Source: a bacterium (GTDB lineage: Bacteria; Patescibacteriota; Minisyncoccia; UBA6257; 02-FULL-45-10c). Taken from it: 64,000 nt of DNA. Made by a program: the position numbers and the translations under genes. Below are positions 7,771 through 36,806 of the stretch, in pieces; within the stretch, counting starts at the first letter, position 1, and each line of letters starts with the position of its first letter. The notes under the pieces are model-generated. The model was not told where the DNA came from, did not search any database, and saw only the letters and a list, made by a program, of their open reading frames with translations. The stretch lies in assembly GCA_030700025.1 (NCBI GenBank), contig JAUYKI010000017.1, forward strand, positions 2,748 through 66,747, in the 5' to 3' direction.

Positions 7771-8440
7771 TGATGATGGGCAACAGTTGCTTTGCAGTGT
7801 TATGAGGTATTAGCCTCTAGCCATAAAGTGGCTGTCTGTTCTGCGTTGCTTCTGTTGCCGTTGACTCGGAATTTTGTCAGGGCGGGTGGACACCGGGTTA
7901 GCTCGCGCGGCTGAAAGAAAGTCAGCCTTCTATTCCCGGCGCCACCTTTGGCAGTGAGATGGTTGTAACACCCCACCGGCCAGCAGCCTGCCCCGACTTT
8001 ACGTCGGGGTCCCCTCCGGCTTGTGACCGGAGGATGATTCCAAATAGCAGTTGCCTTTCGCAGATTATGAGCCTATTGGGCTCTGACCAAAAAAGTGGTC
8101 TTCTTTCTGTTAGCTTCTGTTATTGGATGATTCCGCCCCGACGCTTTGTAAGCCGTCGGGGATACTGCTACTTGGTGAGCCGGTCCTAAGGTAGCGAATC
8201 TTTGGTTTCCTACCCACCAAGATGATGCTTCTTATTGTAGTTAAGGAACGAAAGTAGCGCGATGTGACTCTGCAACTGTCCAGTTTGTGTTGCATCGGAG
8301 CGGAATACCCGGGTGGACGGCCCCAAGGCTCCTACGGCTCTTTGCCTGATCTCGGGTTCTTCCCGACGTCAACCAAGCATTGTAAGAACCAAAGCCAGCA
8401 TCGCTAAGTAAGGATAGCACACCTCAAACCCTTTGTCAAT
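7771..8440. ncRNA. Candidate large structured noncoding RNA of unknown class.
   Basis: About 670 nt at roughly 55% GC have no ORF over 76 aa in any frame. Multiple stable hairpins are seen: ggcaacag...ctgttgcc, ggctgaaagaaagtcagcc, ccccgac...gtcgggg twice, and cctccggcttgtgaccggagg. A minus-strand terminator sits at 7741-7770 and a possible minus-strand promoter TTGACA-17-TATCCT near 8405-8439. Confidence 0.35.
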
Positions 8441-8603
8441 AGCGGGTTTGCAATCTCTAAATTCTAATCCCTAATCTCTAAATAAACTCGAAGCTCAAAT
8501 ATCCGGATTTTTAAATTTTATTTTTGAGATTGGACATTGGAAATTGTTTAGAAATTAGGGTTTAGGAATTAGAAATTTATCAAAACATGTTATTATTAAT
8601 TCC

Positions 8604-9473
8604 ATGAAACTTTTTGATTCTCACACCCACGTTCAATTCTCGGCTTACGATAATGACCGCGAAGAAGTTATTAAACGCGCTCGAGAAGCGGGCGTAAAAA
8701 TGATTTGCGTGGGTACGCAGTTTTCCACTTCCGAGGCGGGGATAAAATTGGCGGAAAAATATCCGGACGATATTTGGGCGTCGGTTGGTTTTCATCCGAA
8801 TCACGCGGTGAGCGAGGGCTGGCATCACGATCCGGACGAACAAAGCGAAGCTCGGCCGGAAAAGTTTGATTCGGACCAATTGGAAAAATTAGCCCTGAAT
8901 CCGAAAGTGGTGGCGATTGGGGAATGCGGATTGGACTACTATAGAATCAGGAATGATGAATTAGGAATTAAGAATAAGCAGAAAGAAGTTTTTTTGGCGC
9001 AAGCGGAGATTGCCCAAAAATTAAATAAAGCCCTTATGATTCATTGCCGTTCCTCGGTTTTGAAAAGCCCCGAAGGTAAATCAATAAAAACTGACGATGC
9101 TTATGAAGACCTATTTAACTTAATGACCAATAACCAATTACCAATAACCAAAGTAATTCACTTTTTTGCCGGGTCTTTAGAAATAGCAAAAAAATTATTA
9201 AATGCCGGCTGTTATTTTACTTTTGGCGGGGTCATAACGTTTACCCGGGATTATGACGAGGCAATTAAATATCTTCCTTTGGACAGAATCCTTTTGGAAA
9301 CCGACGCGCCCTATGTCGCGCCGGAGCCGTACCGGGGGAAGAGGAATGAGCCGGCTTATGTTGTGGAAGTAGCGAAAAAAATGGCGGAGTTCAAAGGCGT
9401 AAGTTTGGAGAAGGTGGCGGAAGCGACCACGCAAAATAACTTGACTATTTTTAGATTATCTGATATTGTATAG
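8604..9473 (+). CDS. tatD: TatD family metal-dependent hydrolase/DNase.
   Basis: The N-terminal MKLFDSHTHVQF His motif, TIM-barrel TatD signatures and a C-terminal DAPY motif are seen. Confidence 0.85.
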   Translation: MKLFDSHTHVQFSAYDNDREEVIKRAREAGVKMICVGTQFSTSEAGIKLAEKYPDDIWASVGFHPNHAVSEGWHHDPDEQSEARPEKFDSDQLEKLALNPKVVAIGECGLDYYRIRNDELGIKNKQKEVFLAQAEIAQKLNKALMIHCRSSVLKSPEGKSIKTDDAYEDLFNLMTNNQLPITKVIHFFAGSLEIAKKLLNAGCYFTFGGVITFTRDYDEAIKYLPLDRILLETDAPYVAPEPYRGKRNEPAYVVEVAKKMAEFKGVSLEKVAEATTQNNLTIFRLSDIV

Positions 9474-11740: not shown

Positions 11741-11747
11741 AATTTAG

Positions 11748-11890
11748 AAAGAGTGTTTTATTCTCCCGCTACTGTTCAAACTCCCGGCGAGAGTTTTCAC
11801 TGGGTCTCGGGCTTCGCTCTTTCCGCCTTTGGCGGAAAACCCTGCCCGCTCAGCCCTCAGCCCGCGCTACGGAGAATAAAACACTCTTTC
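11748..11890. mobile_element. Family-2 MITE-like element, copy A (143 nt), with a perfect 18-bp TIR aagagtgttttattctcc / ggagaataaaacactctt.
   Basis: The interior ccgctac.gttcaaactccc...ttttcactgggtctcgggcttcgct...ccctgcccgctcagcc...cgcgctacgg matches the inverted copy at 36627-36806. Confidence 0.75.
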
Positions 11891-11904
11891 TAATTTTTAT
11901 GGAA

Positions 11905-11936: not shown

Positions 11937-11996
11937 TTGATTAGCGCCCTTGCTAATGCCCGCAAGAGTAAAGGGTTATGCCGAAACGGGCCCTGA

Positions 11997-12116
11997 TCAG
12001 GAATAGTGGCAGGTCAGGTTCAGGGCCATTACCAGAAGGATCATCGCGCCCGCCACGCCCACTATCACCCAGGCGACCTCCTGGCTCACCTTCTTCTCGT
12101 TCAGATACTTCATCAT
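11997..12116 (-). CDS. Small single-TM peptide, 39 aa (MMKYLNEKKVSQEVAWVIVGVAGAMILLVMALNLTCHYS).
   Basis: It is not in the ORF track because it falls under 60 aa. An SD ggaggctgcac lies before the ATG. GC content is about 58%, far above the surroundings. It sits between the upstream small membrane ORF and a terminator. Confidence 0.4.
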   Translation of the reverse strand: MMKYLNEKKVSQEVAWVIVGVAGAMILLVMALNLTCHYS

Positions 12117-12135
12117 GTGCAGCCTCCTTGTTAGT

Positions 12136-12333
12136 TTACTTTGGGCCCGAGATGGGGTTCTGTCGTTTCTTGAGCCCGCCTAACAAAAGACCAATCAGAA
12201 GGCCGATCAGGTATCCGATGTACAAACTGCAGCCTATGGTCACGAACGATGCGTGAGGGGTTCGCGGAGTCTCGAAGGCGTAGGGCAAAAACATGGCAAC
12301 TATCAACCCGATACCAAGCTGAATCATATACAC
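12136..12333 (-). CDS. Small two-TM membrane peptide, 65 aa.
   Basis: SD gggagg lies 9 nt before the ATG. A near-consensus promoter lies upstream. GC-rich codon usage is atypical for this window. Confidence 0.5.
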   Translation of the reverse strand: MYMIQLGIGLIVAMFLPYAFETPRTPHASFVTIGCSLYIGYLIGLLIGLLLGGLKKRQNPISGPK

Positions 12334-12368
12334 GATAGTCCTCCCAGCGTTTTCAAGTTTCTAAACAT

Positions 12369-12397
12369 ATCTTATCATATTATTCCAATCTTGTCAA
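12369..12397 (-). promoter_or_regulatory. Sigma-70-like promoter (TTGACA, 17-nt spacer, TAAGAT) driving the minus-strand small-peptide operon.
   Basis: On the minus strand, ttgacaagattggaataatatgataagat has the -35 at 12392-12397 and the -10 at 12369-12374. Confidence 0.55.
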
Positions 12398-12440
12398 TCG
12401 GGGATAGCAAATACCCCATTTTTAGCTTAAAATTTACCTA

Positions 12441-27074: not shown

Positions 27075-27146
27075 TCCCGCTTAGAAGCAGGCCGCCCCAA
27101 GGTGGCTGTAGCCACTCGCTAAAAGCGAGGGCGGCTTCTAACGGGA
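27075..27146. repeat. Degenerate copy of the 'cccgttagaagc ... gcttctaacggga' palindromic element with a GC-rich hairpin interior and no start codon.
   Basis: The arms tcccgcttagaagc and gcttctaacggga flank ggccgccccaaggtggctgtagccactcgctaaaagcgagggcggc. Confidence 0.5.
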
Positions 27147-27280
27147 TAAACAAACACTCCGCATAGCGGGGTGTTTTACTTTGGCTTGTCCTGCCTGCCC
27201 TGAGTCGTATCGAAGGGAGTTTGCTGGCAGTGAGCTTGTCGAATCTGCCGAAGGGGCTTGCGTTGAGCAAGGTCGAAGTG

Positions 27281-27351
27281 TGGACCTAAGGAGAATCGAA
27301 CTCCTACCTCTTCCATGCCATGGAAGCGTAATGCCACTTTACTATAGGCCC
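27281..27351 (-). tRNA. tRNA-Ala (anticodon GGC).
   Basis: A 71-nt cloverleaf with the G3:U70 identity pair, anticodon loop auGGCau and the T-loop ttcgatt. Confidence 0.75.
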
Positions 27352-27398
27352 AAAATTAACTATTAACTTATAACCGATAATTTATAACTTTTCAAACC

Positions 27399-27473
27399 TG
27401 GTGTCCCCGGACTGAATCGAACAGTCATCCACTCCTTAGGACGGAGTTGTTCTATCCATTGAACTACGGGGAC
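27399..27473 (-). tRNA. tRNA-Arg (anticodon CCT).
   Basis: 75 nt including an encoded CCA. The anticodon loop is guCCUaa and the T-loop is ttcgatt. Confidence 0.8.
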
Positions 27474-27762
27474 GTTTTTCTTTATCCACAAGGCTTACTT
27501 TACAATGTTTGGCGGTAATTTGCTATAATAGTTTCTAGTTGTGTCGCGTCCATAAAAGGGTTTTTGTTGTTTCTTAGAACCCGGTTGTGAGGACTGGATT
27601 TTGAGAAAGGCAGGTTTGTTTCAAAAAATAAGAATCGAGTGGCGGGTCGAATATTATTTATATAATTTAATTCACCGCGCCCAAGCATTCTTTTTCAAAA
27701 ACAAAACGGAAAGTCTTATGAGCCCTCCGCGGAGTCATAAGACTTGCCAGCCCTTTTATGGG

Positions 27763-28041
27763 CGTAGGGGTCTGTCATAAAATTACTGGCTTAATTTGGA
27801 GGCCTGGATTTGAGACAGGTACGAGACGCGACGACGACAACGTGTCTGAATGAAGGACACGTTGAGGAGGAGTAACGAAGTAGCTGGCCAAAGATAGGCC
27901 TCCCCGAAGGGCCAAAGCATTTTATGGGCTGCGACTGCGTCACTCGTCGTCAATGTAGCTAAAGCTACAATCTCCTCCTCGTTTCTTGTCTCGCTCCAAA
28001 AATGCTATGGTAAATAAGTCATTAATTTTATGACAGACCCC
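27763..28041. repeat. Family-1-related structured element, copy 2, with a different terminal inverted repeat (ggggtctgtcataaaatta / taattttatgacagacccc).
   Basis: It shares the core cgacgacga...gttgaggaggagtaacgaag...ccaaag...aatttt...tcgtcgtc...gtagctaaagctaca with copies 1 and 3. Confidence 0.65.
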
Positions 28042-28151
28042 AGTATGGTATAGTTTAAGTAAGCATTATAAACAAGAACCTATTGAAATGGGTTCGGGCA
28101 ATCGATTTGATAAGGTCGCGATTAGCTCAATTCTAATTTTTCAAAAAAACT

Positions 28152-28400
28152 ATGGCAAATTCTGCATTTATGAAGCCGTTGAAAGTTAGCTCGGACTTAG
28201 CCGCGGTAGTCGGCAATGGCCCAATGCCTCGGAGCGAAGTTGTAAAGAAGCTCTGGGTATACATCAAAAAGAACAACCTTCAAGATCCTACAAATAAGCG
28301 CAACATCAACGCCGACGCGAACTTGAAAAAAGTTTTTGGCGGAAAGTCAGTTGTGAACATGTTTGAAATGACCAAATTGGTTTCCAAGCATCTTTCTTAA
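28152..28400 (+). CDS. SWIB/MDM2-domain protein.
   Basis: 82 aa with a SWIB-like pattern (PMPRSEVVKKLWVYIKKNNLQDPTNKR...DANLKKVFG). Confidence 0.7.
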   Translation: MANSAFMKPLKVSSDLAAVVGNGPMPRSEVVKKLWVYIKKNNLQDPTNKRNINADANLKKVFGGKSVVNMFEMTKLVSKHLS

Positions 28401-28514
28401 TTGATTAAGAAATAAAAAATCCGGTCGCCTTAGGCGGCGGGATTTTTTATTTGGGGCATGATATAATGCAGTTAAAGCCCAAAGGTCTGACAATTAAATT
28501 AAGAATTTAATTTC

Positions 28515-28673
28515 ATGGAAGGATATTGTGTAAAGTGCAAAGCGAAAAGAGAAATGAAAGACGCCAAAGAGGTTGAAATGAAAGGAAAGGGCGGCAAGCC
28601 CAGGATGGCAATGACCGGCGTTTGCCCAGTTTGCGGCACTAAAATGTTTCGCATCATGGGCGCCAAGAAATAA
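28515..28673 (+). CDS. Small zinc-ribbon protein, 52 aa.
   Basis: It is not in the ORF track because it falls under 60 aa. CxxC ... CxxC in MEGYCVKCKAKREMKDAKEVEMKGKGGKPRMAMTGVCPVCGTKMFRIMGAKK. Confidence 0.5.
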   Translation: MEGYCVKCKAKREMKDAKEVEMKGKGGKPRMAMTGVCPVCGTKMFRIMGAKK

Positions 28674-28813
28674 TTTATCTTCTCCAGCTTGGTAAGATAT
28701 CTAACAAAAAATCTGGTCAAAAGCCGGATTTTTTGTTAGATTCTAGATTAGAGTAGGGCTAAATCTCACGAAGCGAGATCGCCCGAACATTTTATTGAAA
28801 TAAAATGTTTTAG

Positions 28814-28900
28814 GGAAGCGTGCCAGAGCGGTTGAATGGGCCGCACTCGAAATGCGGTATGCCCGAAAGGGCATCGAAGGTTCGAATCCTTCCGCTTCCG
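28814..28900 (+). tRNA. tRNA-Ser (anticodon CGA).
   Basis: 87 nt. It is near-identical to the tRNA-Ser(TGA) at 24823-24909 except for the anticodon and variable arm. Confidence 0.85.
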
Positions 28901-28957
28901 CAATTTTTAAATTGAGGTTGTTTTTATTTGTTAATCGTGGTATTTATATAGAGCTTT

Positions 28958-36626: not shown

Positions 36627-36806
36627 AAGAAACTTTATTCTCCGTAGCGCGGGCTGAGCCTGCCTGCCGGTAGGCAGGGGCTGAGCGGGCAGGGTGTCCC
36701 GCGAAGCGGGACGAGCGAAGCCCGAGACCCAGTGAAAACTTCCCTCACTCTTGTACAAAAGTGAGGGACTGGGAGTTTGAACGGTAGCGGGAGAATAAAG
36801 TTTCTT
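36627..36806. mobile_element. Family-2 MITE-like element, copy B (180 nt, inverted relative to copy A), with a 17-bp TIR aagaaactttattctcc / ggagaataaagtttctt.
   Basis: Its reverse complement aligns with 11748-11890. It carries two nested palindromic inserts: ccctcactcttgtacaaaagtgaggg at 36742-36767 and cctgcctgccggtaggcagg. Confidence 0.75.

Follow-up and report, generated by a model that had tools for sequence, protein, structure and literature searches.

A predicted family of large, structured noncoding RNAs between metG and tatD in uncultured Parcubacteria, with an antisense match to 23S rRNA

What occupies the long gap between metG and tatD in contig JAUYKI010000017.1? We analyzed a 64,000-nucleotide (nt) stretch of this bacterial contig (the window), in which the genes for methionyl-tRNA synthetase (metG, 6094..7722, Pfam tRNA-synt_1g) and a TatD-family hydrolase (tatD, 8604..9473, Pfam TatD_DNase) both lie on the plus strand and are separated by 881 nt (7723-8603). 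A reading of the DNA letters by a model (the original prediction) had proposed that this gap encodes a structured noncoding transcript of roughly 650 nt on the minus strand. Our analysis supports that proposal, with a predicted transcript at 7735-8404 (~670 nt), conserved signals, and base-pair covariation, and we are confident that this is a genuine structured noncoding RNA gene. The whole explanation we favor, in which the product of this minus-strand gene likely pairs with 23S rRNA, we hold with somewhat better than even confidence.

The gap has little capacity for protein. Its longest open reading frame (ORF) is 76 amino acids (aa), the four longest ORFs had no Pfam match, and all six reading frames are interrupted in the RNA region, so the description of the region as ORF-free holds. 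Its G+C (GC) content, said to exceed that of the neighboring genes, does so: 0.525 for 7735-8404 versus 0.454 for the window, 0.459 for metG, and 0.436 for tatD, although the 5′ part of metG locally reaches 0.58. In contrast to its lack of coding capacity, the minus strand of the gap carries the elements of its own transcription unit:

8411..8439, minus strand: sigma-70-type promoter, TTGACA, a 17-nt spacer with a TG extension, and TATCCT, matching the consensus at 10 of 12 positions
7735..8404, minus strand: predicted noncoding RNA transcript of ~670 nt, its 5′ end placed from promoter geometry and its 3′ end from the T-run of the terminator
7736..7767, minus strand: intrinsic terminator (hairpin 7768..7747, then TTTTTCTTTT), read as CCCCUGAC GCAU GUCGGGGG and then a U-run

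The RNA gene is thus convergent with metG and divergent from tatD. Both signals had been proposed before, the promoter as a minus-strand TTGACA-17-TATCCT near 8405-8439 and the terminator as a hairpin at the metG-proximal end that works on the minus strand only, and we recovered both (8439..8411 with its upstream TG, and 7768..7747 with its T-run). There is no plus-strand terminator at 7768..7747, and metG has no plus-strand terminator of its own. Lying between the RNA promoter and the start of tatD is an AT-rich hairpin (8452-8577; 126 nt, with 52-nt arms that are 75% complementary and a GC content of ~0.26), which occurs once in the window.

Comparison of the metG-tatD region across related genomes, a check suggested with the original prediction, revealed a homologous element with the minus-strand promoter and terminator conserved. 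Contigs of relatives, all from metagenomes of uncultured Parcubacteria, were chosen because they encode the MetG and TatD homologues closest to those of the window. The best-matching MetG shares 72% identity with that of the window, and the named MetG relatives belong to Candidatus Harrisonbacteria. Four further copies of the element were found, each between metG and tatD on the strand opposite those genes; the five sequences are a lower bound on the size of the family:

L021: ~570 nt, closest to the window copy (71% identity over 547 nt)
L002: ~770 nt, identical in a second assembly (L003)
L010: ~440 nt, a short form
L016: ~440 nt, a compact form

The promoter, TTGACAA-N16-TGCTATNNT, is present in all five members at a fixed distance upstream of a conserved RNA 5′ end, which is GCGAUGCUGG in four members and ACGUUGUUGG in L021. 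Minus-strand terminators equivalent to that of the window follow the RNA in L021, L002, and L010, and in L016 only after a small ORF. The element therefore has what is expected of a noncoding RNA gene in general, namely its own promoter and intrinsic terminator on one strand, kept in homologues. The small ORF of L016 (3817-3996, minus strand; 59 aa, hydrophobic, with a strong Shine-Dalgarno sequence) is absent from the other four loci. Because it sits between the 3′ module of the RNA and the terminator, the RNA and this small membrane protein are probably co-transcribed in L016.

Could the gap instead be a nonfunctional spacer or a decayed protein gene? The thought arises from ~200-aa hypothetical protein genes that occupy the same slot, on the same strand, in the RNA-less relatives L009, L004, and L006. 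Using tblastn, we saw no similarity between these slot proteins and the RNA regions; the translated search for pseudogene remnants proposed earlier thus came back empty. The periodicity tests also gave no coding signal: substitutions between members showed no period of three (chi-square p 0.37-0.94), and of the indels only 21-41% were divisible by three. On none of the recovered contigs did gene callers place an ORF within the RNA. The aligned RNA blocks are 73-81% identical, compared with 69-81% for the flanking genes over all nucleotides and 50-63% at their third codon positions. By these comparisons the predicted RNA is shown to be noncoding and under purifying selection. With identity far above that of flanking third codon positions, compensatory pairs, and a conserved promoter and terminator, we consider a spacer or pseudogene extremely improbable.

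The fold of the RNA also bears on which strand is functional. In the window, the minimum free energy (MFE) z-score of the minus strand is -9.3 as reported by the folding tool and -6.4 against 40 dinucleotide shuffles, versus about -4 for the plus strand, and the minus strand is the more negative in five of five members. An E-INS-i alignment of the four long forms, folded with RNAalifold, gave 88 consensus pairs, with G-U in 41 cells of the alignment and A-C in 9. We then restricted the comparison to a core alignment of 213 positions, from which the inserted module A and a window-specific hairpin (E2; both described below) had been excised. RNAalifold found 51 pairs in this core, with 96.6% of cells paired and G-U in 30 cells versus A-C in 4. 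Double-sided changes occur in 13 of the 51 pairs; the mean in shuffled alignments was 4.9, and none of 500 shuffles reached 13. When the 3′ partners were slid by one to three columns as a control, only 0-1 pairs had double changes and pairing fell to ~30-50%. Although such statistics are limited by the 4-6 sequences available, the covariation that the original prediction had suggested looking for is clear.

We considered whether the plus strand could be the functional one. In that case, read-through from metG to tatD would carry a miniature mimic of 23S rRNA helices H69-H71 for an rRNA-binding protein, and the minus-strand RNA would be a cis-antisense regulator. The sense 23S sequence discussed below does lie on the plus strand, with degenerate similarity on to ~nt 1983; metG lacks its own terminator; the plus strand also folds beyond shuffles (z -3.9 to -7.2); and, by inspection, two pairs are G-U on the plus strand and A-C on the minus strand (in P1 of the window's module A and in the inner hairpin of L002). 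However, G-U far exceeds A-C in the minus sense in both alignments, the minus-strand z-scores are always better, and the conserved promoter and terminators are on the minus strand only, with no conserved plus-strand signals seen. From the G-U excess, the z-scores, and the conserved promoter and terminators, we conclude that the RNA strand is minus, and we give the plus-strand mimic only a slight chance.

We asked whether the RNA belongs to a described family. With cmscan and Rfam 15 (4227 models), the only matches in the window at gathering score were six tRNAs, all outside the RNA region. A scan of 7600-8700 at E up to 10 returned only sub-threshold matches to microRNA (miRNA) models, plant-miRNA-like, at the 8452-8577 hairpin, and the RNA regions of L002, L010, L016, and L021 gave no match at E up to 5. 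These results exclude a recognizable RNase P RNA, transfer-messenger RNA (tmRNA), signal recognition particle (SRP) RNA, 6S RNA, group I and II introns, riboswitches, OLE, GOLLD, ROOL, raiA, and HEARO. The earlier failure to match the region to common RNA families by eye, for which cmscan had been named as the check, therefore extends to all five loci. Literature searches found no described large noncoding RNA of this type in the candidate phyla radiation (CPR) and no anti-23S RNA. The family is absent from Rfam 15 and from the literature searched.

From 5′ to 3′, the parts of the predicted RNA in the window are as follows:

8257..8404, minus strand: 5′ domain, a closing helix P1 (GCGAUGCUGG with CAUCGC) around a ~125-nt window-specific insertion with a second GUCCACCCGG motif
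8243..8250, minus strand: 5′ strand of the long-range core-closing helix (helix 1), CGUUCCUU
8171..8226, minus strand: anti-23S domain, with an AUCAUC box, closing stem CUUGGUG/CACCAAG (helix 2), an inner hairpin, and an asymmetric loop
8181..8198, minus strand: antisense block UUCGCUACCUUAGGACCG (plus-strand DNA CGGTCCTAAGGTAGCGAA), 18 nt against Escherichia coli 23S rRNA 1920-1937
8136..8161, minus strand: hairpin E (CCCCGAC...GUCGGGG; helix 5)
8125..8134, minus strand: GGAAUCAUCC box, copy 1 (plus strand GGATGATTCC); a single box in L002 and L016 (GGAAUUAUCC in L016)
8043..8124, minus strand: module A, an 82-nt three-way-junction domain of alpha type between the two boxes; present here and in L021, not in L002 or L016
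8032..8041, minus strand: GGAAUCAUCC box, copy 2 (plus strand GGATGATTCC, which occurs exactly twice)
8013..8033, minus strand: hairpin F (CCUCCGG...CCGGAGG; helix 6)
7991..8009, minus strand: hairpin E2, a second copy of the CCCCGAC hairpin; window specific, not in L021, L002, or L016
7950..7981, minus strand: hairpin G (GGCCGGUGGGG...CUCACUGCC; helix 7)
7940..7948, minus strand: 3′ strand of the long-range core-closing helix, AAGG-U-GGCG, overlapping the invariant GGUGGCGCCG block (7935-7946)
7885..7897, minus strand: conserved CCCGGUGUCCACC motif, a possible partner of GGUGGCGCCGGG by inspection only
7779..7859, minus strand: module B, the 3′-terminal 82-nt three-way-junction domain, of beta type, with sequence differences and compensatory changes relative to alpha

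In the architecture we propose, the 5′ P1 domain would be followed by a core closed by the long-range helix, then by one or two 82-nt modules and the terminator, and the core would hold the anti-23S domain and a multihelix junction that carries the GGAAUCAUCC box and two or three hairpins. Compensatory changes support P1, the core-closing helix, the anti-23S closing stem, and hairpins E, F, and G. All five members retain P1, with a G-U in L010 and three double changes in L021 (ACGUUGU-GGUU / AACC-ACAGCGU). Helix 1 has 10 pairs, 97.5% of cells paired, many G-U pairs, and one U-A to C-G double change. The anti-23S stem has double changes at three pairs, appearing as CUUGGUG/CACCAAG, CUUGGCG/CGCCAAG, CUUGGCA/UGCCAAG, and CUCGGCG/CGCCGAG. 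A local alternative within the anti-23S domain, UCUUGG/CCAAGA, was rejected; it is broken by L016 (GCUCGG), whereas the outer stem covaries. Hairpins E (three pairs with double changes) and F (two of nine) are 100% paired, and hairpin G has double changes at four pairs. By inspection, an AGCAG/CUGCU junction helix has a U-G in L021 and two G-U pairs in L002, and GGUGG-CG-CCGGG could pair alternatively with the downstream CCCGG-N3-CCACC (7885-7897), a pairing that is conserved without covariation.

The original prediction had noted the repeats in this region, a duplicated ccccgac...gtcgggg hairpin and repeated ggatgattcc boxes. Both are there, the hairpin at 7991-8009 and 8136-8161 with the terminator hairpin as a third, related copy, and the box as two GGATGATTCC at 8032-8041 and 8125-8134; a GUCCACCCG motif is duplicated as well. 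What had been missed is that the repeats extend to whole structural modules, that the RNA has an antisense match to 23S rRNA, and that the family is narrowly and patchily distributed. The 82-nt domain, present twice in the window (8043-8124 and 7779-7859) and in L021 and once each in L002 and L016, consists of P1 (8 bp), an AAGCNA internal loop that is symmetric, P2 (4 bp), and a three-way junction bearing two hairpins. The alpha and beta types differ by compensatory changes in P2 (CAGA/UCUG versus GCAG/CUGC), P3 (GACC/GGUC versus AGCC/GGCU), and P4 (GAGCC/GGCUC versus GAGGC/GCCUC), and module A is 88% identical to the single module of L002. Module A lies exactly between two GGAAUCAUCC boxes, and at this position L002 and L016 carry only a single box without a module; an entire folded domain was therefore inserted, probably before the lineages of the window copy and L021 diverged. 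It is possible that the two GGATGATTCC boxes are a target-site duplication. In L021, the boxes have diverged (GGAAGATTCC / ATGATGATTCC) around the same module, which indicates that the insertion is old and that the boxes may be merely structural.

What could this RNA do? One clue is the antisense block. The plus-strand CGGTCCTAAGGTAGCGAA (8181-8198) is identical to 23S rRNA 1920-1937 of E. coli, which served as the reference throughout, and the RNA is therefore antisense to it over 18 nt. On neither strand does E. coli 16S, 23S, or 5S rRNA match elsewhere over 11 nt or more; when both strands of a 670-nt sequence are compared with 4.5 kb of rRNA, ~1e-4 18-mer identities are expected by chance. 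The block is kept as 16 nt in L002, 16 nt in L021, and 15 nt in L016, the L016 block reading GCAAUG at the place of GCGAAA in E. coli. Within the block, GCUACCUUAGGACC (14 columns) is the longest invariant run of the core alignment, followed by GGUGGCGCCG (10 columns). In 23S rRNA, nt 1906-1924 form H69, which makes bridge B2a; the matched nt 1920-1937 lie at the H69/H70 junction in domain IV. Since the antisense block is the most conserved part of the RNA and its target is invariant across life, we favor pairing in trans with 23S rRNA. The RNA would pair with nt 1920-1937 of domain IV in 23S rRNA or its precursor, the remainder of the fold would be a scaffold, either for bound proteins or for self-association, and the pairing would affect maturation, quality control, or activity of the 50S subunit. 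Taken on its own, the claim that the RNA acts by pairing with 23S rRNA is tentative, about one chance in four in our judgment. A more specific version, in which an ultra-small CPR bacterium captured antisense rDNA and now uses it as a snoRNA-like RNA (14-18 nt of Watson-Crick pairing at H69/H70) that is a 50S-assembly chaperone, checkpoint, or inhibitor, we regard as doubtful.

The similarity to 23S rRNA may extend past the block. In gapped alignments, a collapsed and degenerate similarity continues to ~nt 1983 (L021 reads GGTAGCGA--TTCCTT-CCGGGT). When the flanks were shuffled with the 14-mer held fixed, the observed score was reached in 5, 7, 65, and 5 of 300 trials for the four members. This is weak evidence that the anti-23S domain derives from a captured, inverted fragment of rDNA.

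Several points weigh against the explanation we favor. The short form L010 has neither the antisense block nor the 82-nt module, so pairing with 23S rRNA is not a universal function of the family. Partition functions predict an accessibility of the block that is inconsistent between members, and its CUACC is paired in the best local models. The target nucleotides are themselves paired and buried in the mature 50S subunit, and pairing would thus be possible only on nascent or unfolded rRNA. Close relatives (L004, L006, L009, and L019) lack the RNA in the same slot, which makes it dispensable or lineage specific. Finally, five sequences from one narrow clade mean that the covariation reflects few independent events.

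Some of these points fit a different function, that of an 'ornate large RNA' (as OLE, ROOL, GOLLD, and raiA), a scaffold of RNA alone or of RNA with protein. Such an RNA would work through its three-dimensional fold and possibly through self-association, and the 23S-like block would be conserved for a structural or kissing role inside the RNA. The promoter, P1, and linker are retained in L010 although the block is not, and the block is partly paired intramolecularly in the consensus models. The fold is large and multidomain, with long-range helices and duplicated modules, and invariant blocks are palindromic or nearly so (GGCGCC in GGUGGCGCCG, CUGGCCAG in L016 and L021, and CCUUAGG in the antisense block). 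Set against this, the RNA has no sequence or structure similarity to OLE, ROOL, GOLLD, or raiA, oligomerization is pure inference, an 18-nt identity to a universal rRNA segment is unlikely to arise by chance, and weak 23S similarity continues beyond it. We put a scaffold at roughly one in four, a possibility to be kept in mind beside pairing with 23S rRNA.

The identity of the matched segment raises one more alternative, that the RNA is a relic or derivative of a mobile element targeting 23S rDNA, such as a degenerate intron or guide-RNA element, with the block as its captured homing site. The block falls in a classical target region of homing endonucleases and group I introns; the DNA of the matched region is the I-CeuI site and a hot-spot for group I introns (L1917-L1931). 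In a group I intron, the internal guide sequence would show the same order of complementarity, anti-3′-exon and then anti-5′-exon. The polarity of the antisense block is right for such a guide, but the block is 18 nt long, internal, and partly paired. The RNA is also patchy among close relatives in a variable slot, and its modules look inserted between duplicated 10-nt boxes. Patescibacteria are reported to be rich in introns and are known for those in rRNA and tRNA genes (PMC13011429). The expected traces of a mobile element are nevertheless missing from these loci: Rfam detected no group I or II core at E up to 10; no member has a GUGYG 5′ end, as in group II introns; none of the five loci adjoins an endonuclease, reverse transcriptase, or transposase gene; with a covariance model built on the core (R1), each locus had a single copy, and neither the 64-kb window nor 12 other loci yielded another; BLAST found no further copies of the module; and phage and plasmid collections gave no match. 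The fixed syntenic position, strong promoter of its own, and covarying helices argue for a domesticated, selected gene and not a decaying relic, and we consider a mobile relic improbable, if somewhat less so than the plus-strand mimic.

How widely does the predicted RNA occur? We could find the family only in one clade of uncultured Parcubacteria (Patescibacteria/CPR), so by the contigs at hand its distribution appears narrow. Pattern scans yielded no new members; known members (e.g., the JGI contig of L010) were also unrecovered, so these scans carry little weight on distribution. A scan of genome contigs (596 Gb) with GAGCNGGTCCTAAGGTAGCG gave one match, with ~4 expected by chance, in an Oscillospiraceae (Firmicutes) metagenome-assembled genome (L008, CAJTZM010000029.1, 1321-1340); its 20 nt are identical to the window (GAGCCGGTCCTAAGGTAGCG) in a non-rRNA context, and we rejected it as a chance match without other similarity to the RNA. 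Three matches to the promoter and 5′-end pattern among metagenome contigs were all coding or eukaryote-like and were likewise attributed to chance, as was a single match to the 82-nt module in viral contigs, inside an integrase-like ORF.

The slot itself varies among the relatives. In the RNA-less L009 (2723-3373), L004 (13758-14432), and L006 (11583-12161), the unrelated hypothetical protein genes are on the minus strand, the same strand as the RNA; the proteins of L009 and L004 are 24% identical over 210 aa and have no Pfam match. L004 additionally has a gene for a pseudouridine synthase (S4 and PseudoU_synth_2, RluA family) between metG and tatD, and in L019 a short gap is followed by another gene. 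Contigs of three close relatives from independent assemblies (L011, L017, and L018) end ~120 nt downstream of metG, where the RNA would start, and these breaks could reflect a repeat or strain heterogeneity at the locus. Between the metG stop and the RNA terminator, L002 has a further 200 nt of GC-rich, hairpin-forming sequence (5173-5370; GTCCGAGTAGTGG...CCACTACTCAC) that is not in the window and whose GCGATAGATCCCA recurs within the L002 RNA. At the position equivalent to the 8452-8577 hairpin, the inverted repeat of L002 is a different one (20-bp arms), and neither L016 nor L021 has any.

The claim that the metG-tatD gap is the largest noncoding stretch of the window stands in part. When ORFs of at least 100 aa are masked, 27116-28957 is longer, but it includes three tRNAs as well as two plausible small genes, which leaves 7723-8603 as the largest without a recognizable gene. 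Within the longer stretch, 27474-28151 (678 nt, with tRNA genes on one side and a small SWIB-like gene on the other) lacks a convincing ORF and has a z-score of ~-7.7 on both strands and no match to Rfam at E up to 1; it includes a ~275-nt element (27767-28041) closed by 30-nt inverted arms that are 90% complementary, and could represent either another unclassified structured RNA or a palindromic element. A structured palindromic repeat of ~150 nt (core ..TCTCCGTAGCRCGGG..GAGCGGGCAGGGTT..CCGCCAAAGGCGGA..GTAGCGGGAG) occurs at 11745-11895 and ~36634-36803 in opposite orientations, and again in L016 (~3544-3700), where metG is on one side of it and the terminator downstream of the RNA and small ORF is on the other. 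The repeat may be an element like a miniature inverted-repeat transposable element (MITE) or a repetitive extragenic palindrome (REP), or a small multicopy noncoding RNA of the lineage. The minus-strand region 11950-12425, which appears intergenic at the 100-aa ORF cut-off, holds two small hydrophobic ORFs (65 aa, 12333..12136, and ~39 aa just downstream) with their own TTGACA-17-TAAGAT promoter.

Why would such an RNA matter? Large, intricately folded bacterial RNAs are rare, and earlier ones have proved to be ribozymes, cores of ribonucleoproteins, or, recently, RNA-only assemblies, so a new class is a lead to new biochemistry. Patescibacteria are episymbionts with minimal genomes and unusual ribosomes and rRNA genes (introns, missing ribosomal proteins), and keeping 0.45-0.8 kb of noncoding DNA behind a consensus promoter in a minimal genome implies a real balance of cost and benefit. 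Antisense complementarity to a universal 23S segment at the subunit interface offers a concrete hypothesis, that a bacterial RNA guides an interaction with rRNA. Should the rRNA link be a relic, the family still documents modular evolution, in which whole three-way-junction domains were duplicated and inserted, and the compact 440-nt variant of L016 is suited to structural work.

We compared the predicted RNA with the known systems it brings to mind. The rRNA mimics in leaders of ribosomal protein genes (L1, L10, and L20) likewise have a short rRNA-identical stretch outside an rRNA gene; here, the identity is on the nontranscribed (plus) strand, the element is no gene's leader, and it is ~10 times larger. 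A group I intron guide at 23S L1917-L1931 shares contiguous exon-junction complementarity in the order expected for P10 and P1. The RNA differs in having no detectable core, in lying outside the rRNA gene with no homing endonuclease gene nearby, and in a complementarity that far exceeds a normal guide in length and is located 95-210 nt from the 5′ end. The archaeal and eukaryotic rRNA-pairing RNAs, i.e., box C/D and H/ACA guides and small nucleolar RNAs (snoRNAs) of the U3, U8, and snR30 types, are similarly trans-encoded, with 14-18 nt of rRNA complementarity in a structured context. At 18 nt in the window copy and 15-16 nt in three of its relatives, the match to E. coli 23S rRNA exceeds the at least 10 nt of rRNA complementarity that characterizes box C/D RNAs. 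The RNA is, however, far larger and has no H/ACA bipartite pocket; a box C (RUGAUGA) is found in no member, and no CUGA adjoins the antisense block to give a placed box D. Its bacterial hosts have no known small nucleolar ribonucleoprotein (snoRNP) proteins. Similar in overall form are OLE, GOLLD, ROOL, raiA, and HEARO, none of which is known to have an exact antisense copy of an rRNA segment. The RNA of the window has no match to their Rfam models, its hosts are Patescibacteria, and it occupies a fixed slot between housekeeping genes instead of prophage or tRNA contexts. What it shares with them is a length of several hundred nt, its own promoter and terminator, a covariation-backed fold with long-range helices and multiple domains, a GC content above its surroundings, a lineage-restricted distribution, and a function that is not evident from context.

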